14,012 nucleotides of DNA from NCBI GenBank assembly GCA_965644295.1, contig CBFFRP010000098.1, positions 1 to 14,012 on the forward strand. Direction: 5' to 3'. Position numbers and translations under genes: made by a program. This DNA comes from Paraphysomonas bandaiensis (taxonomy: Eukaryota; Protista; Chrysophyceae). Below the pieces are notes generated by a model. It did not search any database. It was not told the DNA's origin and saw nothing but the letters and a program-made list of their open reading frames with translations. The stretch's first letter is position 1. Each line of letters starts with the position of its first letter. Below, piece after piece: positions 1 through 14,012 of the stretch.

Positions 1-352
1 ATGAGTGGGCGAAAATTATCTGCGGTGTTGAGTTCTGCAATATGATATGATATAATATATTGAAGTGAGTTAATAGTGTGCAATAGATGAAGTCAACTCA
101 TAGGTGTAACGGGTGATTATAGGTGCAAAGGAATTACATTCAGTTACTGATGTCTGACTATACTAGATATAGAACTGACTGATGAACATAGGATAAACAG
201 ATGTTTTATCAGATGTTACACGAATATGTAGTGAAGTGTTCAGAGTAATAGCTATAATTATTTCTTATTTGAAAGTGCACTGTGTTCAACACAGTAAGTT
301 AAGGTTTAAGTGTAGAGCAAAGTTAACTTCAGTGAAATGTCCAATTCTAAAA

Positions 353-446
353 TGCGGACTATGCAGAATGCGGCTCACATTAGTTTCCCAGAGAAATGTA
401 TCTCAGAACACCACGAAAAGGTGCGAGCCCGACATTGTTGAGGGCA
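353..446 (-). pseudogene. Remnant of an unknown coding family, paralogous to 6155-6261
   Basis: The reverse complement aligns with 6155-6261. The copies translate as ALNNVGLAPFRGVL and ALNKVGLAHFRGVL, with three synonymous third-position differences. Confidence 0.55.
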
Positions 447-749
447 TAAAGCATAAAGTACATTGCCAACATAATTTAGCGCTCTTGTAGCCACCACTGA
501 TAAACACCTGTGCCTTGAATCATCACATTTCTGTTTTACAGTTATATACCTATACAGTATGTTGACTGCGTATTAGTTTCGTTTTTACATGTATTTAACG
601 AATTATACACTTCTATCTTAGGGGAATATACATATTTCAACTCCCCCACTTATTCTGTAGAAATGATTATCGCTATAATACTGCAGCTCTATTTTTTTCT
701 TCTAAAACTAGCCATATAGGATAAGTGAATATGAAAACTTATTAAAGAT

Positions 750-1350
750 ACTGTGTACTCCAAACTCGCTGTAGGCGGTACTATTGATTTTATTCCACTT
801 CATTGGATATATACTCCTCTTCCAGTAGTTTGCTATCGTTCCAGCATGAGAGAACACAATGTACCCTACAGTATGGCACCAGCCCATCCAGAATCATTAA
901 CACATAGATCAACCTACTCCACTTTATACACTGCTATCCACTCTAGTATTTCAATAGTTGAATTGCTAACCTACAAGATGCGTACGTAGGCTTACTACAC
1001 TATCTCGTCAGCAATCCGACAGCATAGGCGAGGTATGGTTGCGTATGTAGTACTAAATACAAAATAATGATGCTATGGTATGAAATAAATGTTGATACCC
1101 ACTGTTCCTGTTCTGATGTAAGCTCCCGTTCTGCAGCTAATAGTTCCTGCGTATTTGGTGCTAATCTCTTGTTCTTCCTACTATTATGTCCAATGATTGG
1201 ATGAAATTTCCGAAATATTTTCTCCGCATAATATTTTGTGTGAGATCGTTTTCGAACCAATTCGCAGTAAGCCTTCATCTATTGGTAGGTACGTATAACA
1301 TATAGTCGTCTTCATCCCTAGATATAACAAAACGCAGAGCTCATGTCAAG
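750..1350 (-). mobile_element. Decayed Ty1/copia LTR retrotransposon remnant (RT C-terminal part and start of RNase H)
   Basis: The minus-strand ORF 1000..1278 contains YYAEKIFRKF and YHSII-ILYLVLHTQPYLAYAVGLLTR, matching the copia RT consensus Y.EKIL.KF and YRS.VG.L.YL...TRPDIAYAVG.LSR. Past the stop it reads CSKPTYASCRLAIQLLKY, then in shifted frames NDSGWAG (cf. SDADWAG) and GYIVFSHAGTIA (cf. GYVF...GGPISW). There are several stops and frameshifts, and the ends are approximate. Confidence 0.8.
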
Positions 1351-1743
1351 TTGATGAACGCAATAATATATTATAATATCAATCACTACACTCTAATCCT
1401 TTTACTACAGAGATGCAAATGTAGTTGGCGCCACCTCTTGCTTCTCCTCTAGCCTTATATTTTTGTCTATATATTCAAGTTTCATGAACATACATATCTT
1501 TCCAACGAATAAGTTTGACCCCAAATGGTCGACGAACAATTATCTTGAATGCTTCACTTCTCTTCGTCGCGTTTGGCCTTCATCTAGTCGTGTGTCTATT
1601 TAAGGAGAGTAATCCGTGTCCTGAGAACTATTTGGTTTTTAGGGATGTTCAACCTTGCAGTACCTTCACAAAACTCCTCTATAGTTTACATTGGCGTCTA
1701 TATAATTGCCCCATTCTGAGCGCGTACTTAGGTAGATTCGGAT

Positions 1744-1817
1744 GGGGGTCGGGTGGGTACCTAACTAATACTTGATTTAAGTCCCATACGTTATTTGCTA
1801 GCTACCTACTGATCCCA
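1744..1817. repeat. Small imperfect inverted repeat (arms about 27 bp)
   Basis: tgggggtcgggtgggtacctaactaata resembles the reverse complement of the right arm, tgggatcagtaggtagctagcaaata. Confidence 0.45.
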
Positions 1818-2567
1818 ACTAGCTACATCATTATCACATGGTATTCAGCGCTGAATATGCAGTGAGACCCCGGGTGGGGTAGTGCTGAACTAAGCAATGT
1901 GTACATAGATAGAGGTGAGCAATCGCAGCAGCACTCAGCCGCACCCACTAGGGTATTGCTAACCCGAGGTATTTACTCCGGGTGCAGCCACTATATGTGA
2001 ATAATAAGGAAATGTAAGAAAGAAGAAAGGAAAATAAGAAGAGGAATGTGCTTGTTAATAGCCTTACAATAGCTCAGGCACCCCCAAGCTCTTATAATTG
2101 GACACCTCCAACTACGTGTTAAGGTGTAAGGCACTCTAACAAAAACTGAACAGCAAGCAGAACACAAAATAACTCACAAAGAACCACTCATGTTCTACAA
2201 GCTATCTAGAAACACACAATAACATCTAGAACAATATTCTACAAAAGATTGTACAAGATTTGGTTGATTATGTGGACATATCAGTTTTCTGGAACACTCC
2301 CGTAGAATGCTATGAAGACCAACTCCAACCAACAGAGTCTCCAGCACACCAAAATGAGAATATTGTCCAATCATATGCTTGTACTCGACAATATACCGTC
2401 ACTGTACTATAGACCATACACAGATATACAACAGCACAATACTGTATACTCAGAATCATATACAGCATCATACAATCGTATATACAGAGGAGTACAAGGT
2501 CTCATACATCCCGCATACCAGAGTAGCATCCAGGAGTATACAGCAAATACAGTAAATACGGTAAATA

Positions 2568-2747
2568 CGGCATACGACAAAAACAACAGTTGAGAAGAGA
2601 CTGAAGATGATGATGCTCGTAACACTCATTGCAGATACATGCCAACGCTCCATAACCAGTAAGAGATGAATGATGACACTTGGCACACTAGTCAAGTCCA
2701 TAATGACAGACGTCTGACGCAAGCCACGGCTCCAAACATCATGAACA
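2568..2747 (-). pseudogene. Degenerate RING-finger-like coding fragment
   Basis: A minus frame not listed in the ORF track reads CS*CLEPWLASDVCHYGLD*CAKCHHSSLTGYGALACICNECYEHHHLQSLLNCCFCRMP. This gives CxxC...CxH...CxxC...CxxCR spacing with two in-frame stops. Confidence 0.45.
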
Positions 2748-3660
2748 CGAGAAGTTAGAGTCCACTGCGCTCCACAGGAATATGAAGACCACACAGAGAG
2801 TACTAATGGCCTCATGACAAGATGAGTGGACCCTCAGGTGATACAATGTGTACATATACCATACATACGTCATATTCATGTCATGTATACATGCAGATCG
2901 TGCTTATGACAAGACTTGGATCTTATACAAGCACGTGTACACCATACCCTATAGTATGCAAGTGATAAGAGTGTGATAATGTATATAGATGGTGACACAC
3001 ATACATATAGAGATATTGGAAGGTATAGATGAACATGTATACACTACATTGATATCTAATTCTTTCTATCTGCAGCTAGAGAAGAATTAACACCAACACA
3101 GCATAGAGTGTTATATGTGTACAGTGTGATAATGGATAAGGTGCATAATGTATGTCATATGTGTATAGTGTGAGTGATGTTGGTGATATAGTAATAAGTG
3201 TGAGTGCATACAATGCAATATCAATACAATGATGACATGCAGTGCAAGGCATAGTGTTGTGTACATGCAAGCATACATATAATAATATACACAATATGTA
3301 TCACAAGCAAGAGGTCTCACTCTTACTAGCGTAGCCCATATAAGTATCCAACCATAGCCATAGTACTCACCAGTAGATAGACATCCAAATCTCACTCACA
3401 GGAGTATAGTTGAACGCCACAGCGTTACAAGGGGCCGCACGCAGTAATTAGTTACGCTGTCAATATGGGGCAATAATACTTCTACATTGTTACGTTGGAG
3501 GTATTTTGGCTAACCTCCTCCCCGGAGTGTTGCTGTCGTCTTTGTAGCTCCAGTAGAAACTATCCGATCTTTACTATATTAGTATAATATAAAACAACAT
3601 CATCAGGTACTGTTGTAGGTACTCCTCCTAGCTGCATAATTCTTTAACCAATCATATAGC

Positions 3661-3923
3661 TAAGTGAATTGATCTACCTATTGGGAGCTTTAGGTTGCAA
3701 AATACTTGGGAGCTTGTATTTTTGCTGTGATAAGTTTAGATAGTCATTCTGTTCTATGAACAACTTGGTTTTTAACGCCTAAGATCACTGAAAAGAGAGC
3801 GTGTGTATGCTTGTTTATGGAAACAAGAAAACAGAATGACTATCTAAACTTATCACGAAATACAAGCTTCCAAGTATTTTGCATTCTTAAACCCCCAATA
3901 GGCGGATCGGATCAATTAACTTA
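3661..3923. mobile_element. Foldback/MITE-like element with imperfect terminal inverted repeats of about 93 bp
   Basis: The left arm 3661-3753 is the reverse complement of the right arm 3830-3923, including a perfect core gtgataagtttagatagtcattctgtt / aacagaatgactatctaaacttatcac. Weaker pairing extends to about 3646/3941. No coding capacity. Confidence 0.75.
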
Positions 3924-5727
3924 CCGATATATCGATTAGTTCGAGATAAAGAGTAAGAAGAAGGCAAGACAGACACCCCCCTCTACCATATCGGCATCCG
4001 TTGTATATCAATATACTTCTTGCTCACTGCGTTTGCTTTGAGTGATTAATAACGAGAATGGTTGTACCTCTGTGCCTTGGGGCGACACACAAAGTAGTTC
4101 TCGTAGTAGCGGAGTATCGTACAGAAATGCGACTGGGTGCATTGTGTATGAAGCGAGAGGACCACGTACTGTCATCCATGTTATAGGCTACAGTTTCGAC
4201 ATCATCTATATCAAAAGTGACTATCAAGCGATGTATACCTGGATACAAGAACTGCTGTGGCTTCGAGGGTGTTGGTCGAGCGAGGATTACGGTAAGCGAA
4301 CCCACAATACATGGACAGTCAAAGTACGTGCAGCATGACACTTACTCCTAATACCATAATTGAAATTAAATATCATTGAAATAGCAGAGCACGTAAATCC
4401 AAGTGGTACGTTCAAAAGTGCAACACTGCATTATGTTAGAACCGATGATCATACTGTGGACACCTTTGCCAAATTATTGCGTGGTGTTATATACGAGAAG
4501 CATAAAAATGTGTCAACGTGAGGATTAGAAAAACTCTAGGGTAGTCATGAGAGAAAACTCAATTTAACGACACATAAGATTGTGAAGAGTTGACGATGGT
4601 GAAGCTAACTGCAATGCTGGAGTCATACGGTTACCAGTTTGTCCTATTCCGTTTTCGTGGTTGCGTATCTGTCAGTTATATCTTGTGGTATGAAGGATCT
4701 GTCTACAACTTTGAATTGGGAGAGTGTGTTGAGTTTTACTAACTTGTAAAGCAATTAAAAGCTGTAAATTATATCTCTTAAGAATTCAGTTTTTAAAAAC
4801 AGTATTATATAAATTTAATGAATTGATATATATTAGGTTAGACAAATGGATATATAGAAATGGCTGTATAAAATCGTGTCTACTTAAGATAGTAAAATAT
4901 TGGTTAGTAACAGTTACATTATTAATACAATGAATGATGAGAAATGATTATCACAAATTTTATTTTATTGAAGGTAGATTGTATTTTAAGTTCAGTTACT
5001 CACTTCTAGTTTTCAACGTCAAATTCTGTTACAGTGCCTAGTGTTTTTATCACAGATAACATATTAGTTAATAGAGACTATTTGAGAGCTGTGTGATTTC
5101 AGTTTCTTACTTCTATGAGTAAAAATTACAAATATTATTATTATTCTAGTGGCGTATTATTTGCTCCATTCTGAGCGTTTCTACTATTAATTAAAAATTA
5201 AAACTAGCATGGTTTACAGCCATGCTCTCCACGACATGACGCTCGTCAAATTCTACTGGCCGAGTACTTCAAGCTATTTTATAATCATTAGGTTGCATCT
5301 ATTGACTAGTTAAAGTTAATCAAACTAGATAGATTATGTTATTAGAATTGTATACACAATTGTGTTGTCAAGTAAAACTCATCAACAACATGATATAATT
5401 TGTTCATGTCATCTACTGATCAACTTCCGTATCTTGTACAGTCGTGGTATAATACTTCAGTTTCACATATATAGCTATATAGTATGTTTGACTACGTATT
5501 ACAGTTTCTCACATTGTATTCACCGTATTCCATAGAACTATCTTAGAGAGACATACGTATTCCAATACTAACGTGCGTATTCCAACAGCATCTTCATTTA
5601 TGTGTTAAAATATAACTGCGCGGGCTTGCTCATCATTTCTATAAATATATACATATACAAAGATGTGGCGTTTTATTCAAATGGATTTATTACTGGTTCA
5701 GCAATATGGGGAAGTAGAGTATTTATC

Positions 5728-5862
5728 TTAATGGCCTAAAGCACTCAACACAGGGGCAACAGCAGAGAGATCAGCAGCAGCCTCAGCCTTTGCCTTAAGA
5801 GCGGCCCTGGCCTTCTTCTCGGCGTAGTAAGCCTGCTCCTTGGCTTTTCTCTGAGCCTCAAT
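5728..5862 (-). pseudogene. RPL13A: Orphan 3' fragment of 60S ribosomal protein L13a (uL13)
   Basis: A GC-rich island whose minus frame reads IEAQRKAKEQAYYAEKKARAALKAKAEAAADLSAVAPVLSALGH*, matching the eukaryotic uL13 C-terminal helix (LE..RK.K...YY..KK). AATAAA motifs follow in the putative 3' UTR. No upstream part of uL13 is recognisable in the window. Confidence 0.8.
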
Positions 5863-5960
5863 TGATACAATTGAAATTATAACATTACTAACAGAAGTTG
5901 CCATTATTTGCTAAGGTTTTCTGTGGTTCTCAATTGATGCGATTGAAATTATAACATTAC
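5857..5960 (+). repeat. 32-bp direct repeat pair at the breakpoint of the RPL13A fragment
   Basis: ctcaattgatacaattgaaattataacattac (5857-5888) and ctcaattgatgcgattgaaattataacattac (5929-5960). Confidence 0.8.
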
Positions 5961-6154
5961 ACGATAAAGAACCTAAGTTGTATTCGGTGTGCTCAACACC
6001 AATCATTTACTTCTATAATGTACGAACCACACTCTCAGTAGTCGTACCCTGTATAGTCACTATCTTATACTTCAGTTTCATACTACAATATAATATAATA
6101 TATTAATTACATACATATAGATATAACTTTTGATCCTTGCATCTCACATAATAC

Positions 6155-6261
6155 TGCCCTCAACAAAGTTGGACTTGCACATTTTCGTGGTGTTCTGGAG
6201 GATATAAGTACCGGAGAGATTCTCTCTGGGAAACTAACATGAGTCGCAAACATAGTCAGCA
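6155..6261 (+). pseudogene. Remnant of an unknown coding family, paralogous to 353-446
   Basis: Reads ALNKVGLAHFRGVLEDISTGEILSGKLT*VA and aligns with the reverse complement of 353-446. Confidence 0.55.
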
Positions 6262-6489
6262 GATAGATATTGTTCTGCCCACTCATAGCCGAATGCTTGT
6301 GTGGTACAAGGGACACCAATATAAGTGTCACTTGTGTAGACGTCTTTGGACCCTGACGAATAAACAGGCATCCGGAAATGGGCCCACCACCTCAACGGCA
6401 TCCGGGACAGGGCCCACCTGAAGGGTAACCGGGGTATTGGGCTGCCTGCTGAAGTCAAGCATACGGGATGTTCACCTTAAGGACTCAGA

Positions 6490-6766
6490 ACGGAAGTGGT
6501 TGCACCTTGGTGCTTGCGGCAACGCACAAGCCGCTTCTGTAGGACAATAGCGTTTGTATTAATTAGTTACGGGTGGAGGTCTCACTAGGTTGACTAGCAT
6601 TCATTCATCTACTAGCTACTAAACTACGGAAGTGGTCGCACCTTGGTGCTTGCGGCGACGCACAAGCAGATTCTGTAGCGTTAAATAGTAGGATAAAAGA
6701 GTTTGTATTGATTAAGTTACGGGTAGAGGTCTAAATAGCATGTCTAGCATTCCTCTAGCCACTAAA
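6490..6766 (+). repeat. Diverged tandem repeat, 2 x about 136 bp, each unit starting with a conserved branched hairpin
   Basis: Units start at 6490 and 6626 with acggaagtggtYgcaccttggtgcttgcggcRacgcacaagc...ttctgtag...gtttgtatt...agttacgggtRgaggtct...ctagcattc...ctagcYactaaa. Confidence 0.85.
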
Positions 6767-7044
6767 TTGGTGCAGGTTTTCAACGACTATTGCTAGAAAA
6801 TAAGACATTCAATATATATATACATATTACTGCACTCAATTGCAAGCATATAGAATCTTCAGATCTCAACACTTTCAATTGCTCGAATATATAGCAGAAC
6901 TCAACAGACCGCTATAGGGGTATACTGGTTTACTTTGCTCACTAACTAAACCGATGTTGCTACATAGCACTTATAACTAGACTTTCAATATATATATAAG
7001 ATATTAATTTATTATGATGCATCTCATACGCGATACTGGTTCGG

Positions 7045-9303
7045 TTAAACTTCTGAACTTATTTTCAAACTTTCACCAAAACTAAAGGGCATATCCTCGT
7101 CACTATTATCGCTATCCTCATCGTCGCCATCGCCATCATGATCATTGCCATTTCGTTCGTCTCCTGTGAAGAAGAACTCGTATTTCAAATCATCACTAAG
7201 TTGAACGCCATATGCATCTGAAAGTGCATTACGAAGTGATTCAAATGAAAAAAAAATTTGTGATTTGCACAGCTCTCTAATTTGTTTCGCACACCGACCT
7301 GCGGCTGATTGACTCATATACTCCCGAAGAACTGATGTTAAAATTGATAATCTACTAGAATGAGGGTCAACGACGGAGCAAGCACAAGGATGGAACGAAA
7401 GACAAGAATGAAAATGTTTCAGTTCTTTGCGTGACATTATCACACACCTATCATTAGGAAGTCGGACTTTTCTTTTTCCATAGGTTGCTAAAGCAGAAAA
7501 TATACAAAAAACGACTAACATACCATTCACCGATGGTTTTGGCATCAGTTTAATGTACTTCGAAAGAGCACCAGTTGTCAGCGGCTTTGCTTCACGTTTG
7601 CGCTGATCCAGAAATAAGACAGTTCTACCGCAAACCGTATGTAATACGAAATAAAGGTCCACGCCTTTGCCCCCTGAGCCATTTACAACAATATGGCACA
7701 TACTAGATTCGAACAAATTAACTGTTCGAAGAAGATTCTCACTTTCTGGAATAGAGTTCAAATTAGATTCTTCGGCCAACTCATTGTCCGCGAAAAACAC
7801 CTCCGCTGGTCTTAGTTGAACAACCACTGGACGAATAGTACTCAAATTTGTACGTGCGCCAGGAAAAAGATCGTTGATAGATATTGTCTCTCGACCAAGT
7901 ACTAGCAATGCATTTATACGAAGACAGTGGAAATGCGCACCAAACAACTCCCATTTGTACCAGGGCACATCGGATATTGACGCCAACTCATGAATAATTC
8001 TGAGAGAGTCCATGAAACGAATTCTGCATAGAGATTGCGAAATGTCATCTCTATGATCGCACGCTAAACATTGCAAAATTCCTACATACGGAATAGTTAC
8101 GTACTCTGAATCACCACAAGAGGTAAATTCTACTAGACCACGGTCAGCCATTTGTTGCCATGTTGGTTTTGACACTTCGGGACTTCGTACGCTATGGCTT
8201 ACTAATGAGATTCCAGGCGAATCTGCGGGGGAAACAGAGGTCCTACTCACACAATAGGCTACCAGGGTGAGAAGAGAATTACCATCTAACAAAAGTCTCC
8301 ATTGATTAGAATGTTCGTTGGAGATATCATTGCGAATCTGTTTAATCCTATTGGCTGTGGGAAACTTGTCAAGCAGATGACACTCATTTTGAATTCTCCG
8401 ACTAAAATTTACAACACTTCTTGGAATATTACCTAGTGTGAATAAGCATTGCTGAAACACTTCACTGCGAATGGTTTCAGGATATATGTTCGACGCGATG
8501 CCTGCGTAGTTGCGCTGAAATGGGATATTTATCTTGGTACATAAATCTCGAGAAGATGAAGTACTACTAATTCGCTCCCATTCAGTACCAGCGAACATGG
8601 TATACAAGTGAACATTATGATTTTTGTTTAAATAAAGAGTTGCCTCAAAGAGAAGTGTCATCAAGCGGTCTAACTTATCTATTCCGTCTTCTTCAAGTCC
8701 TGTAATACTCTGAAATTCGTCAATGCCAAGAAAAAAAGAAATCGGATTACTTTCATCAAATGTATCTCTTTTGGAGCTCAACACTGCAAGTATTGCCTCC
8801 GAGATAGTGAGTCCATCGTAAATATTAGAATTTTCTAGAAGATTCATGTGCTGTCGAAACTCGGAGCCGTCAAAAAAGTGGCGTTGTAGAATCCTCCATG
8901 CAAAAGTTTTTTCAATAGCACAGACATTATCAACAGAACACAATCCATGACCATTAAAATATAAAACTAATAAACCAGTGCGGTTAGTTGATGATATTCC
9001 CATCATATCAAACATAGATAACCATTCTTCAAGTAGTCTGGTCTTTCCAACCCCAGATATACCCACACAAACAGGATGTTTATAATCTGTTCGATTAGTT
9101 GAATTATTAGAAAAACTTTTTTGACGAAGTTTCCATATTTCAGTAATTCTTTTAAGGATATCATAACGTCCATATAGAGGTATCTGACGATCCTCATTAC
9201 TGTGACAATATATAAATGGATTGCTCTCAATTCCACCTAATTGAAAGATTTCATTCATCAGATTTGTATGATAAGATTTTATTTCTTGTATTTGATATGT
9301 CAT
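7045..9303 (-). CDS. Crinkler (CR)-type effector/toxin: P-loop NTPase + PD-(D/E)xK restriction-endonuclease-fold domain + C-terminal helix-hairpin-helix, acidic tail
   Basis: Intact, intronless 752-aa ORF. Walker A GISGVGKT (near 9063), Walker B FFLGIDEFQ (near 8720), MFAGT and LGNIPR. Then WYKWELFGAHFHCLR, VVNGSGGKGVD and LFLDQRK (QxK-type REase motifs), followed by a ComEA-like HhH (VDPHSS...AKQIRELCKSQIFFSFESL). This NTPase+REase+HhH order is typical of CRN-family proteins. Confidence 0.8.
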   Translation of the reverse strand: MTYQIQEIKSYHTNLMNEIFQLGGIESNPFIYCHSNEDRQIPLYGRYDILKRITEIWKLRQKSFSNNSTNRTDYKHPVCVGISGVGKTRLLEEWLSMFDMMGISSTNRTGLLVLYFNGHGLCSVDNVCAIEKTFAWRILQRHFFDGSEFRQHMNLLENSNIYDGLTISEAILAVLSSKRDTFDESNPISFFLGIDEFQSITGLEEDGIDKLDRLMTLLFEATLYLNKNHNVHLYTMFAGTEWERISSTSSSRDLCTKINIPFQRNYAGIASNIYPETIRSEVFQQCLFTLGNIPRSVVNFSRRIQNECHLLDKFPTANRIKQIRNDISNEHSNQWRLLLDGNSLLTLVAYCVSRTSVSPADSPGISLVSHSVRSPEVSKPTWQQMADRGLVEFTSCGDSEYVTIPYVGILQCLACDHRDDISQSLCRIRFMDSLRIIHELASISDVPWYKWELFGAHFHCLRINALLVLGRETISINDLFPGARTNLSTIRPVVVQLRPAEVFFADNELAEESNLNSIPESENLLRTVNLFESSMCHIVVNGSGGKGVDLYFVLHTVCGRTVLFLDQRKREAKPLTTGALSKYIKLMPKPSVNGMLVVFCIFSALATYGKRKVRLPNDRCVIMSRKELKHFHSCLSFHPCACSVVDPHSSRLSILTSVLREYMSQSAAGRCAKQIRELCKSQIFFSFESLRNALSDAYGVQLSDDLKYEFFFTGDERNGNDHDGDGDDEDSDNSDEDMPFSFGESLKISSEV

Positions 9304-9347
9304 TTTAATTGAGGTTTATATTATTCTACTGTATGTTTAATGATACT

Positions 9348-9631
9348 CATCTCTACTGGATTATTAAGGCAGATATCTAGATATGTACACAGTACTATAA
9401 CCCTAACCCTAATAGTACGACGTTCCTACGGGAAGTGGTTGGTGTGCAAATCGATTTTACGGTCATTGTTTTTTTCATTATTTTTTAAGTGAAAAGTGGT
9501 TTTTTACGAAAAAAAACGACCAAAAATTATTGATGAACTAAATCAGTGCCACCAAGCAAAATCGATTTGCACAACCACTTCCAGTACTGTACATATCTAG
9601 ATATGTGCCTGTTAATCAGCCAGTAGAGATG
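9348..9631. mobile_element. Foldback/MITE-like element with TIRs of about 74 bp; the left arm is interrupted by a telomere-repeat-containing insert
   Basis: The reverse complement of 9558-9631 (catctctactggctgattaacaggcacatatctagatatgtacagtactggaagtggttgtgcaaatcgatttt) matches 9348-9458 apart from an insert of about 34 bp (9397-9430). The termini are CA...TG, and CT flanks both sides (possible 2-bp TSD). Confidence 0.75.
9398..9412 (+). repeat. Short telomeric repeat TAACCCTAACCCTAA (TTAGGG type)
   Basis: 2.5 units closed by a 6-bp stem, gtacta (9392-9397) / tagtac (9413-9418). Confidence 0.6.
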
Positions 9632-9726
9632 CTGTGACAACGTCCCGGAATGCTGTGACACCAGTATGGTGCAGTTTGAATATATATATATTTGCCGGAC
9701 ATGTCAAACGTGTAGTTGACAATTGG

Positions 9727-10116
9727 ATGATCTCAAACGAATCGTTTTCACGCGACTGTGAACTTCGTTCGTCCAAAATTCAGTATACGCGGTCGGCTTA
9801 TTTCAACAAGTGGTTGATGCGTATTCTCGGTACAAATATTCACTGTACACATAAACAACAAAACCTTCGAGGACTCAACCGATTCGATCTATACTTTTGT
9901 GCACATCCCAAACATAGGGATTGGTTGTCCTACAACGAGATAGGAATGGTGATTGATCGATTCAATTTGATCGACCGTGTATTCACACATAACAAACCAC
10001 AGCGACGGAAAAACTTCTTTACGTATAGTGTCGTATTACAGTGTATAGTGGATGATTTGAATCTGATGGCGAAGATCCCTTTTCCAATACACACTCTCGA
10101 TTTATCCAATAAATGA
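9727..10116 (+). CDS. Compact VLTF3-like (poxvirus A2 family) viral late transcription factor; possibly truncated by a TGA (the frame stays open to TAG at 10174-10176)
   Basis: YTRSAYFNKWL (cf. YKR.NHFNEWL), LSYNEIGMVIDRFNLIDRVF (cf. LS.E.E..L...F..IQ.PF) and RRKNFFTYSVVLQCIVDDLNL (cf. RKNFLSYSYVLYK...LL). The first ATG is at 9727; the ORF track start at 9634 is a non-ATG codon next to the foldback element. Confidence 0.75.
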   Translation: MISNESFSRDCELRSSKIQYTRSAYFNKWLMRILGTNIHCTHKQQNLRGLNRFDLYFCAHPKHRDWLSYNEIGMVIDRFNLIDRVFTHNKPQRRKNFFTYSVVLQCIVDDLNLMAKIPFPIHTLDLSNK

Positions 10117-10187
10117 ACCCATGCAAACCAGGTCGCTTTAATTACAGCGATATTAAATGGGAAAATCCCTGATTAGTCATGGGTTTT

Positions 10188-10354
10188 TCATTGGTTTTTC
10201 TTGGTAAGATTGGATGCCACTTTAATTCCGATTGCGTGTTGCTTCTTGGACACCACCTTACCGTGCTTGTTTTTCATTAAATTTGATTTTTAAGACCACC
10301 CGCCGTCCTATCTGCGGTTCCGTGCCAAACTTGTAATTTTGTTCCAACAGTCAT
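10188..10354 (-). pseudogene. DVNP: DVNP (dinoflagellate/viral nucleoprotein), 55 aa once a 1-nt homopolymer deletion is repaired
   Basis: From the ATG at 10354: MTVGTKLQVWHGTADRTAGGLK. Adding one base to the T5 run at 10287-10291 continues it as KSNLMKNKHGKVVSKKQHAIGIKVASNLTKKNQ*. This matches the viral DVNP signature GS..QVWHG.A..T.GGL.K.DL.KNK.G.IVSKK.H. Absent from the ORF track. Confidence 0.9.
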
Positions 10355-10432
10355 TTTATTATATTTTTACAATAAGTCAAGTAAAAATGAGCTTACTCGT
10401 ATATATTATTTGCATATTATATAGTTTATCAA

Positions 10433-10699
10433 ATGACAACAACTATGTCCGATTCTATCAAGAAAAAGCGGCGGGAGTACATGCGGCGATACCATGCAAA
10501 GTACCCTGATCGACTCAAGGTGATACAGCGGGAGTCTAATCGGAAATATAACGAAAAACAGAAAGCTCTATTGGGTGTCGAAAAGTTTAATGAAAATCGC
10601 CGTAGATGGATGAGAAACCATTATGCTCGAAGGAAAAAGGAGATTGCAGAGTTTCGAGAATACAAAAAAACTATGTTGCGTAAAAAAACTGACGATTGA
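10433..10699 (+). CDS. Small Lys/Arg-rich helical protein, putative DNA-binding protein of the viral element
   Basis: 88 aa with an ATG start, divergent from DVNP across a 78-bp AT-rich spacer. Internal repeat RREYMRRYHAK / RRRWMRNHYAR, a pattern common in small proteins of eukaryotic DNA viruses and transposons. Confidence 0.6.
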   Translation: MTTTMSDSIKKKRREYMRRYHAKYPDRLKVIQRESNRKYNEKQKALLGVEKFNENRRRWMRNHYARRKKEIAEFREYKKTMLRKKTDD

Positions 10700-10706
10700 T
10701 TTGTGC

Positions 10707-11009
10707 TAAATTTTATACTTTTTGTAAACAATTGTGGGTGATCCTCCTCCACCCATTTATATATTTTTCATAATTATATAAAAAAATGAATTTCATTTGA
10801 GAGCCATTTATTTCCATTCTCAAAAGTTGCAGTGCATGTTGGATGGGTATAAATTTTATACTTTTTGTAAACAATCGTGTGTGATCCTCCTCCACTCATT
10901 TATATATTTTTCATAATTATATAAAAAAATGAATTTCATTTGAGAGCCATTTATTTCCATTCTCAAAAGTTGCAATGCATGTTGGATGGGTATAAATTTT
11001 ATACTTTTG
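10707..11009 (+). repeat. 143-bp tandem repeat (two near-identical copies plus the start of a third), candidate replication origin or regulatory region
   Basis: Units start at 10707, 10850 and 10993 and differ by only a few substitutions. Unit junctions form the palindrome GTATAAA-T-TTTATAC, and each unit has a very AT-rich core. Confidence 0.9.
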
Positions 11010-11088
11010 ATAAAATCATTTGAGTTCCATTTTCATTTTTAATCACAACACACAACTGTTTGACCCCCCACCATCATTTCTTACAAAG

Positions 11089-14012
11089 ATGTCGTCCAGC
11101 AGCAATCAGAAACAGAAGTGTCCGCATTGTCAAAAAATGATTAAAGACGTTCGAGGTCATATTATGCGGCAGCACCCGGGTTTCACCGCAACGGTCAATT
11201 CTACTGAATTGCCATCAAATATTAAGACCACATCAAATCCATGGGAACTAGGTTACTTGCCATCCCCTCGTACGGACATCGGTAGTGATGAAACCATGTG
11301 GTCACCCCATAACCCATTTGGGTTAACTATGCCGAAAACTGTTCCATCAATTTACGTAGGCCGAGGAAAAATAAAAACATTTGAGATAACCGATCGTTCG
11401 TTATTGAGGGGTATCATTAATTTGAGTTCGAGCAACCAAGAGAAATCGTCGTCAAGCGAATATGTACGACAAGAGACAATTGCACAGCTTGCACAGCGAA
11501 TGTACGATCTCCAAGAAACGGATAATGAAAATCCCGAGCTCGGTCGTGTCAAAACTTCGTACAAACACGCCATACATGAATTTGGTCGAATCATTGAAAT
11601 GTTATCGGCAAGTTTGTCAACAGTAAAACGATCTTACCGACACACATTATGCCGGATAATCTATGTAGACTTCGATTTTGTTTGTTGTATGCCCACCATA
11701 ATGTTGGCATTTGCGGCGCGATACCAAATCAAATGTCCGAGATTGCGAGCATATTGTGAAAATCCCAAGAAACTACGTGTCGAAATCGCACGCCATCACT
11801 TTCCAGCTATGTGTGAAGAAAAAACTACAGTTGAAATATTGAAAATGTATAATGACACGGCAAAATCGCTTCCCATTCGTCTGGCGTTCGGGGGAACCTA
11901 TCGGCAATGGCGTGAAGATTTTGAAATTGATAAATCTATTCGTGAGATGTCATTTGTGAATGATCTTCAACGTGAATTGAATCAACTCATGACATTGATA
12001 TATAACAACAACCCTCATATTCGAAAGGCATATGCCGAGCTTCGTCCCGAAAAAACTAAGTCCCAATTGAAACGATCAATCAATTCTTTATTTTTTAGTA
12101 GCATTGAAAAGGTGGTACAAGAAGATGCGACGATGTTTCTTTATCACGCATATCCGACGATTGAACGTGGAAGTATTGTGCCATGCCAAGATGGAATGAT
12201 GCTCCGTGTCAATGATGTTCGCGACGATATGCTCCAACGGGTGAATGAATACCTGGAGCTAAAGTATGGATACGGGCTCACTCTGATTGATAAACCTTTT
12301 GACGAAGCCATGGACGACATTCCCCGAGATGCGAGTATCAATGCCGTACCTGCGCCGAATATGACTGAAGAATTGAAACGATATTTCGATGTCGACACTG
12401 GTGACATCAAAATCATAACTGAAGATTCAAAGTATCTTTCTCAAGAGGGTACTCCATTTGAGGACGACATTTTTGATGATTCGAAATACCTCATTCTTAG
12501 TTCATATATGGGTACTGGGAAATCAACTGCGATGCGGAGACTGATTGATCATATGTTTAGCGATGAATTAGAACTTGTATGGGAGAAGGAAAAACAGGTG
12601 TATCGACGAAGGAATGATGATAGCAACTATAAGTCGCGTGGTGTTTACTGCAATGAACCACCACGTAGGAGCATTTTACAAGTATCACCGAGGCGGTTGT
12701 TTACACATCATTGCGAATCTTGCAATCACTTTGATAGTTACCTCTCGATTGAACGTGGTCCCAACGATTGTGAAACATTTATTTGTCAAGTGGAATCGTT
12801 GCTAGCTAAAACGAGTAACATCACATACAAATGTATCCTTCTCGATGAAATTGAGGAAATCTTGGCTCAGTTTTCAAGTCCGACGATGAAACAACATATT
12901 GATACTTGGAATTTATTGGTAAATCATATGCAAGGGGCGGATAAAGTCATCATTGCGGATGCATATATCACCCAACGAACCATTTCATTTGTAAATTCGG
13001 TGGCGGGTTCGTTGAGTGGTGTCACCATGATCCGAAATACAACATTGCCAAGTAATCAAACGGCAATCATAGTAAAGGATGATATCATGAATGAAGTATT
13101 CCTTCATAACTTGAGTCAGGATAAACGGATATATGCCGTGTTTTCTACAAAAACTCGAATGAAATCGGTGAATTCTATGATAGCCAAACACTTCAAAGAT
13201 AAAAAAGTACTTGTTTACAAGGGGGGTCAAGGGCGCGAAATGAAAGAGTCCGTATTTAATATAAACACGACGTGGGCGGAAGTGGATATAGTTCTCACAA
13301 CCCCCGCTTTAACCGTGGGCAATAGCTATTCACCAGACGACAAATCCTTTTGGTTTGATTGCACGTTTGCGTTTAATTTTGATAGAAGTGCCTGCGTGCG
13401 AACTGCAAACCAAATGATGTGGCGGAACCGACACACCAAAGAGAACAAGATATATGTATCGTTCCAGGAAAGTAAACAAATTCGTTTCAAAGGTAGTAAG
13501 CCGGATGAGCTATTGCATGAGTTATTTGAGTCACGTCGCCACGCGGATGAAAAACAATCTAAAATACAATCTATTCGGCGGTACTGTGAAAAGTGTGCAA
13601 AAGAGGCGTACGATGCGGGGGACTATGTGACGGGCAATCAGTTTACCAGTGTTTTTATGTTTTCCGGAAGCGATGAATGCTCTAATGCACCAGTTGCCTT
13701 ATACGACAAACGCTCCTTTATACATATTACGAGACCACTTTGTCAAATATGACATATAGAGCCATGTATCACGAGTACCTTAAAAGGGCCGGTTATGCTA
13801 TTCGGCCATATGATGGGAAGGAACTGTGTAAACAGAAAACAGAAAAAGAAGAGAGCACTGCGTATTCTATGACACCTTCTGTGCGAAATTGTGATATTTA
13901 TTGCAAAATGATACAATTGCGGAATAAAGACAACGCGACGGGTTTCGAATTGATGCAGATCAAAAAATATCAATTTGATCAAAGTACGAGTAAATGTCGA
14001 GCCGCAGAGCAT
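11089..14012 (+). CDS. Viral replication protein: C2H2 zinc finger + PolA-family TVpol polymerase/primase + UL9-like (origin-binding) SF2 helicase; frameshifted near 13702, 3'-partial
   Basis: ATG at 11089. Zinc finger CPHCQKMIKDVRGHIMRQH. TVpol motifs: FGR...SLSTVKRSYRHTL, YVDFDFVCCMPTIM (motif A), AKSLPIRLAFGG (B), IVPCQDGMML (C). Helicase motifs: SYMGTGKS (near 12511), VSPRR, CQVESL, LLDEIEEILAQFSSPTM, IIADA, TTPALTVGNSY, QMMWRNR. A second frame is open from 13704 to the window end (RQTLLYTYYETTLSN...YLKRAGY...ATGFELMQIKKYQF). Confidence 0.85.

Follow-up and report, generated by a model that had tools for sequence, protein, structure and literature searches.

A frameshifted DVNP gene in virus-derived DNA joined to the genome of a likely non-dinoflagellate protist

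DVNPs are viral proteins that pack DNA, and dinoflagellates employ them instead of histones. Cellular DVNPs are stated to be restricted to dinoflagellates in the available sections of two reports (PMC11953307; PMC6723414). This statement could miss cases, because searches of protein databases cannot see a 55-codon gene that is split between two frames. The stretch of DNA analyzed here (14,012 nucleotides, "the window") raises the question of whether such a gene lies in the nuclear DNA of another host, and whether that host makes use of it.

Identification of a DVNP gene split between two frames

The initial annotation had proposed a near-perfect DVNP signature, split within a homopolymer, and a search with the family HMM as a check. 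The features concerned are the following.

10289 to 10354, minus strand: front half of a DVNP pseudogene, 22 codons from the ATG, matching positions 1-20 of Pfam PF19060
10188 to 10289, minus strand: rear half in a different frame, 33 codons and a stop, matching PF19060 positions 21-51
10287 to 10291: run of five T, site of the frame break according to translation and to the five of five spanning contigs without a gap

Translation places the start at an ATG at 10354. The front frame encodes 22 DVNP-like residues, followed by three further codons and a stop at 10277-10279 (25 codons in total), and the rear frame resumes the DVNP pattern until a stop at 10188-10190, the switch between frames being located within the T run. 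Against PF19060, which has a cut-off of 25 bits, the front half scored 26.0 bits (E 1.3e-5) and the rear half 29.6 bits (E 9.6e-7); each half thus exceeds the cut-off alone, at adjoining profile positions, and the proposed HMM check came out positive for both.

Read through with an X at the break, the sequence reached 67.7 bits with a profile built from 120 natural DVNPs. It aligned to the best three natural DVNPs without gaps over 51 residues (61-63% identity), and to copies in IMG/VR over 47-51 residues (60-64% identity). As a control for chance, 200 dinucleotide-block shuffles of the whole window were scored; the best reached 9.8 bits, versus 43.4 and 21.2 bits for the two DVNP halves. A search for a DVNP structure in the PDB found none. 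The minus strand of 10188-10354 is therefore a genuine DVNP gene, frameshifted and shortened. The split signature was borne out, with both halves above the Pfam cut-off and far above the shuffles, whereas "near-perfect" is correct for profile positions 1-51 of 77 and not for the rear motif, which is absent.

The frame break in several sequencing runs

Part of 9400-11400 is contained in 20 of the 24 listed sequencing runs, and seven runs were compared with the window. Contigs of five of the seven (X1, X4, X6, X10 and X14) span the T run, and none of the five has a gap there; among the pieces listed for X8 and X15, none lies across it. The X10 contig carries five T at the break, and in X4 the sole gap across 9134-10783 falls at 9468. 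X1 is possibly the source of the window, and the other four spanning runs come from four samples with three organism labels; since all are almost identical to the window, they may represent one or few strains, and the depth of X14 is 3. Homopolymer indels were detected elsewhere in the same comparison (9468 and 11142). The initial annotation had suggested looking for T6 instead of T5 at 10287-10291; T6 was not seen in any of the five spanning contigs. Among the compared runs, the break is a genuine allele.

Viral features and a missing C-terminal tail

The DVNP match does not extend past profile position 51 of 77, and the rear G-x-x-x-K-K-G-x-F region is absent. From the WHG motif to the end there are 46 residues, versus a minimum of 57 and a median of 77 in 82 viral DVNPs whose 3' end is closed and which were chosen by front-half patterns only. 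The window copy ends 11 residues short of the shortest of these, and no remnant of the rear motif or of a basic tail was found in the three frames past the stop. In viral DVNPs, the predicted nuclear signal lies mostly within this basic C-terminal tail (PMC11953307).

At the other end, nine residues precede the WHG motif, which is the median of 113 natural DVNPs. Dinoflagellate DVNPs carry a Lys-rich N-terminal extension (PMC6723414). In the window copy it is absent, at least from this exon, with an in-frame stop five codons upstream of the ATG, and because of this the gene appears, from its sequence, to be viral rather than dinoflagellate in type. Viral DVNPs of Imitervirales and Algavirales (for example PkV RF02 ORF414) have the same core motif order, spacing, start position and basic make-up; unlike them, the window copy is frameshifted, lacks the rear conserved motif and basic tail, and is found in a host chromosome. 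The DVNPs of Hematodinium and other dinoflagellates share the family core and the nuclear gene location, but the window copy differs from them also in being single, broken and still amid viral genes, and there is no indication that the host uses it.

In a tree of 83 DVNP cores (56 columns, viral sequences only, no dinoflagellate rows), the window copy formed a long branch outside any supported group. It was placed weakly beside L014, a giant-virus-like fragment (91/77, not starred); this placement was not taken as evidence of the donor.

Joining of viral and host DNA

The viral block lies to the right of a host gene, separated from it by a palindromic junction.

7045 to 9300, minus strand: Crinkler-type (CR) gene in the host flank, intact, intronless, 751 amino acids, with paralogues in the genome
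9348 to 9631: foldback (imperfect palindrome) of about 284 bases between the host gene and the viral block (z -13)

The Crinkler-type gene has 13 homologues, one of them with PF20147, and its Atlas clusters are 96-100% Eukaryota, of mixed taxa. Paralogue differences were present in all four runs. Among the relatives of this multi-copy family, marine contigs of transcript size and one MMETSP protein stand at 46-51%, and one chytrid at 28%. The DNA to the left of the gene is repeat-rich and non-coding: no Pfam family was found in 1-7050, read in six frames through stops. Neither an Rfam match nor a tRNA was found. At 369-446 and 6155-6248, 5.7 kb apart, lie two oppositely oriented copies of a host repeat of very high copy number, whose contig depths add up to thousands of times that of low-copy DNA; they may bound a transposon.

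The left junction is bridged by X1 and X4 contigs that cover 9134-10783, from within the Crinkler-type gene past the DVNP gene. Contig depths of viral block versus low-copy host pieces were 35.5-41.7 versus 35.6-44.7 in X1, 82.9-85.3 versus 89-95 in X4 and 25-31 versus 27-28 in X6, and in X8 the viral block was likewise at the depth of low-copy host pieces. The block is not contained in any single contig and extends past the end of the window, the right junction lying beyond 14012. The viral block is contiguous with host DNA at host-like depth, as an endogenous viral element is. Its CpG value is 1.16-1.30, versus 0.70 in the left flank, and because CpG in the block is not depleted, there is no trace of long methylation-driven decay.

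The foldback is low-copy by contig depth, and a paralogous X4 contig departs from the window sequence at 9367. It could be the end or origin of the element, or a host foldback element. The loop of a side hairpin holds TAACCCTAACCCTAA (TAACCC twice). A second foldback of similar size, with arms of 64 and 27 bases, is found in the host flank at 3658-3921.

The initial annotation had viewed a small integrating element carrying DVNP as a plausible vehicle for virus-to-nucleus transfer. This stands insofar as the gene reached the nucleus within host-joined viral DNA; nothing shows that the host went on to use it.

Neighboring genes and the replicase

The remaining features of the viral block are listed below.

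9727 to 10116, plus strand: short VLTF3-like late transcription factor ORF, 129 codons (PF04947, ESM Atlas, motif alignment)
10433 to 10699, plus strand: small basic ORF, 88 amino acids, divergent from the DVNP gene (RNA contigs of X10 and X15)
10707 to 11008: tandem duplication upstream of the replicase, 2.1 copies of 143 bp, 97% alike
11089 to 13752, plus strand: fusion of a family-A polymerase (TVpol-like) and a UL9-like SF2 helicase, 887 amino acids, cut by a frameshift near 13690
13686 to 14012, plus strand: out-of-frame continuation of the helicase (tblastn), open at the window end

The VLTF3-like ORF scored 18-19 bits with PF04947, under the cut-off of 25. PF04947 clusters accounted for 29 of its 30 hits in the ESM Atlas, with a top score of 0.95, a low recognition value and the top clusters at 128-166 amino acids, and both family motifs align to the VLTF3 of a giant virus. 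After the stop, the frame reopens to 10176 (19 codons) and ends in register with the family C-terminus. Because of this open continuation the stop at 10116 may be premature, which is suggestive only. The DVNP gene converges on this frame and ends 11 bases from its end, so that the short DVNP tail could also be original. Neither the VLTF3-like ORF nor the DVNP rear half matched phage records, portal-protein matches at E 0.6 being taken as chance. For the 88-residue basic ORF, the search for a family gave no convincing hit; it is covered in a culture run and in a marine polyA run, and is possibly the block's only expressed gene.

The rear of the replicase is a UL9-like helicase (PF02399, 43.9 bits), and a structure model of 11326-12348 (pLDDT 89) matched the Klenow fragment (E 3e-7). 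Among named viruses, the polymerase model matched Zamilon, Pyramimonas orientalis virus, Qinghai Lake virophage and Catovirus; the matches in Pyramimonas orientalis virus and Catovirus are proteins of 1019 and 1054 amino acids. Both polymerase and helicase domains are spanned by 20 of the 151 matching homologues. Homologues P0031, P0036, P0048, P0063 and P0069 continue in frame 3 from 13689 in tblastn, and the polymerase-helicase gene is thus frameshifted like the DVNP gene. Further length differences were found between runs: in X4, a contig covers the 1540 bases of 11393-12932, inside the replicase frame, with 1547 letters (+7), and X6 contigs are one letter short in 9501-10168 and one in 13222-14012.

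A PolA-UL9 fusion is annotated in the chrysophyte Epipyxis sp. (P0028, EukProt), the nearest named carrier, and suggests an endogenous element there. Virophage-type contigs L058 (4653-7877), L120 (9998-12919) and L057 (314-3202) also combine PolA with a UL9-like SF2 helicase, and not with the usual SF3. No close relatives of the replicase were found in viral contigs, and searches of these contigs with homologues P0027 and P0038 found nothing. In metagenome contigs, two of 39 stretches gave matches, 15-residue zinc-finger ones that were taken as chance. At 12903-13293, X4 has a second diverged copy of part of the helicase with 24 differences and 18 gap letters in 375; shared differences place it also in X1 and X6, which points to further viral fragments in the genome.

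The donor virus

Capsid, ATPase, integrase and protease genes were not found within the window, and the only Nucleocytoviricota-type genes in the 4.4 kb of viral block are the short VLTF3-like ORF and DVNP. A TVpol-type replicase and a VLTF3 are both present, but the VLTF3 is under its Pfam cut-off and neither gene is exclusive to PLV, Zephyrvirus or mriyavirus; the foldback marks the left edge of the block, and a similar one also occurs in the host flank. We give about an even chance to a compact donor virus that combined a virophage/polinton-type replicase with Nucleocytoviricota genes. The narrower proposal, that the block represents the left end of a polinton-sized Nucleocytoviricota-like virus which integrated with its own short DVNP, short VLTF3 and PolA-UL9 replicase, is put forward tentatively.

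A giant virus of the Imitervirales or Algavirales, of which the block would be a fragment in a giant endogenous viral element, is a serious candidate, if somewhat short of an even chance; this alternative bears on the donor alone and agrees with decay of the locus. DVNP is reported in 29% of 1817 marine giant-virus genomes (PMC11953307), VLTF3 is a signature of Nucleocytoviricota (PMC11253617), and the polymerase model matches the Pyramimonas orientalis virus and Catovirus proteins. Moreover, DVNP or VLTF3 was found in none of 144 TVpol loci (mostly on 5-30 kb contigs, some of which entered the count twice; 2.0 Mb in total). Conversely, TVpol or UL9 was found near none of 136 DVNP loci (at least 5 kb long in 95 cases), a weak test against a giant virus, and the VLTF3-like ORF has 129 codons, versus 328-376 in the open frames of three VLTF3s near giant-virus DVNPs. 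The full PolA-UL9 fusion occurs in IMG/VR on three contigs, all small, two of them with a Sputnik-type capsid, and Zephyrvirus clusters pair VLTF3 with PLV replicases (available text of bioRxiv 2026.06.19.733378). The same replicase fusion is present in virophages and apparently also in giant viruses.

Zephyrviruses VC123/VC126 and mriyaviruses, which are small and Nucleocytoviricota-like, have VLTF3 in a compact genome, as here. Zephyrvirus replicases include TV-Pol, and some Yaraviridae have a UL9-like SF2 helicase, whereas mriyavirus UL9 helicases carry an AEP primase and the one in the window carries PolA. No endogenous Zephyrvirus was found by the authors who described them, in contrast to the integrated block here (in a window without capsid). 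Virophages with a TVpol-SF2 replicase (L058, L120 and L057; by fold, Zamilon and Qinghai Lake virophage) share the replicase architecture, but the three virophage loci have no VLTF3 or DVNP, and the window has no virophage capsid, protease or ATPase.

The combination of DVNP, short VLTF3 and PolA-UL9 is absent from all 280 viral loci examined. DVNP is mentioned neither in the main texts on mriyaviruses (PMC11253617) and on the PLV framework including Zephyrviruses (bioRxiv 2026.06.19.733378), nor in those on small-virus mosaicism and on brown-algal insertions (for the latter, PMC11890097). The combination may point to an undescribed small virus. If so, DVNP would occur in a small integrating class where it has not been described, with a first host record, and the locus would illustrate a route of DVNP into non-dinoflagellate nuclei and its subsequent loss, a failed counterpart of the dinoflagellate take-over.

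Neutral decay versus selective silencing

We consider it probable that the DVNP gene is not a host-adopted gene but a pseudogene, part of an integrated DNA-virus fragment that is undergoing neutral decay as a whole. The donor virus would have used DVNP for packing its DNA, as DVNP is found in virions of PkV RF02 (PMC11953307). The viral DNA would then have entered the chromosome next to the Crinkler-type gene and may have accumulated indels without selection for virus production, so that the DVNP frame would now yield 25 residues at most. General decay is suggested by the helicase frameshift, the run-specific indels, the short DVNP tail and the possible early stop of VLTF3. In a brown alga, viral insertions are usually frameshifted and fragmentary (PMC11890097). 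Bellas et al. found that the collapse of several copies into one can create artefactual stops in viral insertions as assembled (PMC10120064); a second diverged copy was seen for part of the helicase, and none for DVNP.

It is unlikely that the host instead selected for a knock-out of DVNP specifically, because of nucleosome displacement, with the viral neighbors staying active. Hematodinium DVNP does displace nucleosomes and slow yeast growth, but the toxicity demonstrated in the available text is that of a dinoflagellate DVNP and not of a viral one (PMC5906630), and toxicity of the window copy is doubtful since it lacks the basic C-terminal tail, the usual site of the predicted nuclear signal in viral copies. 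Every spanning run has the DVNP break, whereas certain other indels occur in individual runs only; the helicase frameshift, however, is equally shared. The marine polyA run covers both flanking ORFs and not DVNP, although cover holes (X4 beyond 13293, X15 over DVNP, X8) were not counted as evidence. Neutral mutation commonly removes a single base from a homopolymer. With several breaks at this one locus, DVNP does not stand out among the genes, and the targeted inactivation of a chromatin-toxic gene suggested in the initial annotation finds no support, given the helicase frameshift, the further indels and the missing DVNP tail.

The host

In X1 and X4, contig totals were 84-98 million letters at 35-85 fold depth, with a GC content of 38%. 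The genomes cited for dinoflagellates are of gigabase size (PMC6723414), and contig totals of only about 85-98 Mb therefore argue against a core dinoflagellate. The host is likely a non-dinoflagellate marine protist, perhaps, as a guess, a stramenopile, with a small animal as a less likely alternative.

A small-genome dinoflagellate (syndinian) host, which would make the DVNP gene unremarkable, is improbable. The setting is marine, and small syndinian genomes of about this size exist, but the DVNP has no Lys-rich N-terminal extension and lies in a viral context, and the 38% GC and the intronless 751-residue host gene do not fit either. Weaker points against it are the TTAGGG-type repeat and the fact that no spliced-leader relic was found. 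The Epipyxis fusion, as the nearest named one, also counts against a syndinian, although all it demonstrates is the presence of such elements in chrysophyte data.

Possible transcription across the break

In X10, tentatively an RNA run, a single contig lies at 9589-10693 and the remaining viral block compared has none; X15, the marine polyA run, covers 9869-10127 and 10440-10695 without differences. Part of the viral block thus seems to be transcribed, from one or the other strand; full silencing would not predict this, and it counts against the reading of plain decay. Both runs end near 10695 while the DNA continues, which hints weakly at the end of a transcript.

Ribosomal frameshifting or polymerase slippage, which could read through the break and yield a regulated low DVNP level, is very improbable. 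The break does lie in a homopolymer between halves that are otherwise stop-free, and X10 covers the DVNP gene. However, no in-frame X-XXY-YYZ slippery heptamer was found by eye, the X10 contig shows five T, the natural viral DVNPs examined are single frames, and the neighboring genes are also broken.

Sequencing or assembly error, to which a homopolymer is prone and which contigs that drop rare variants might hide, is a negligible explanation and was refuted for the majority allele, since five of five spanning contigs from runs dated 2017 to 2025 agree in a comparison that can see homopolymer indels.

DVNP as viral cargo in other genomes

As this case shows, other eukaryotic genomes can carry DVNP genes as viral cargo without their being called. 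In the literature outside most subscription papers, we found no report of DVNP in a non-dinoflagellate genome or in a polinton-sized virus. The locus opens the question of whether DVNP often reaches nuclei and is purged faster than its neighbors, as its toxicity in yeast predicts, or merely decays with them; a single locus leaves this unanswered and shows no host use, and the finding is accordingly modest.

Proviral DVNP in other nuclei is in fact to be expected, which lowers the surprise: EsV-1-52 is included in the DVNP alignment of PMC11953307, and the phaeovirus EsV-1 integrates (PMC2373305). By analogy, DVNP would sit in brown-algal chromosomes. Phaeovirus proviruses such as EsV-1 in Ectocarpus likewise bring a DVNP-encoding virus into a non-dinoflagellate nucleus, and EsV-1-type or degenerate giant-virus elements are mostly decayed (PMC11890097), as the block in the window probably is too; this block differs from them in its PolA-UL9 replicase and short VLTF3.
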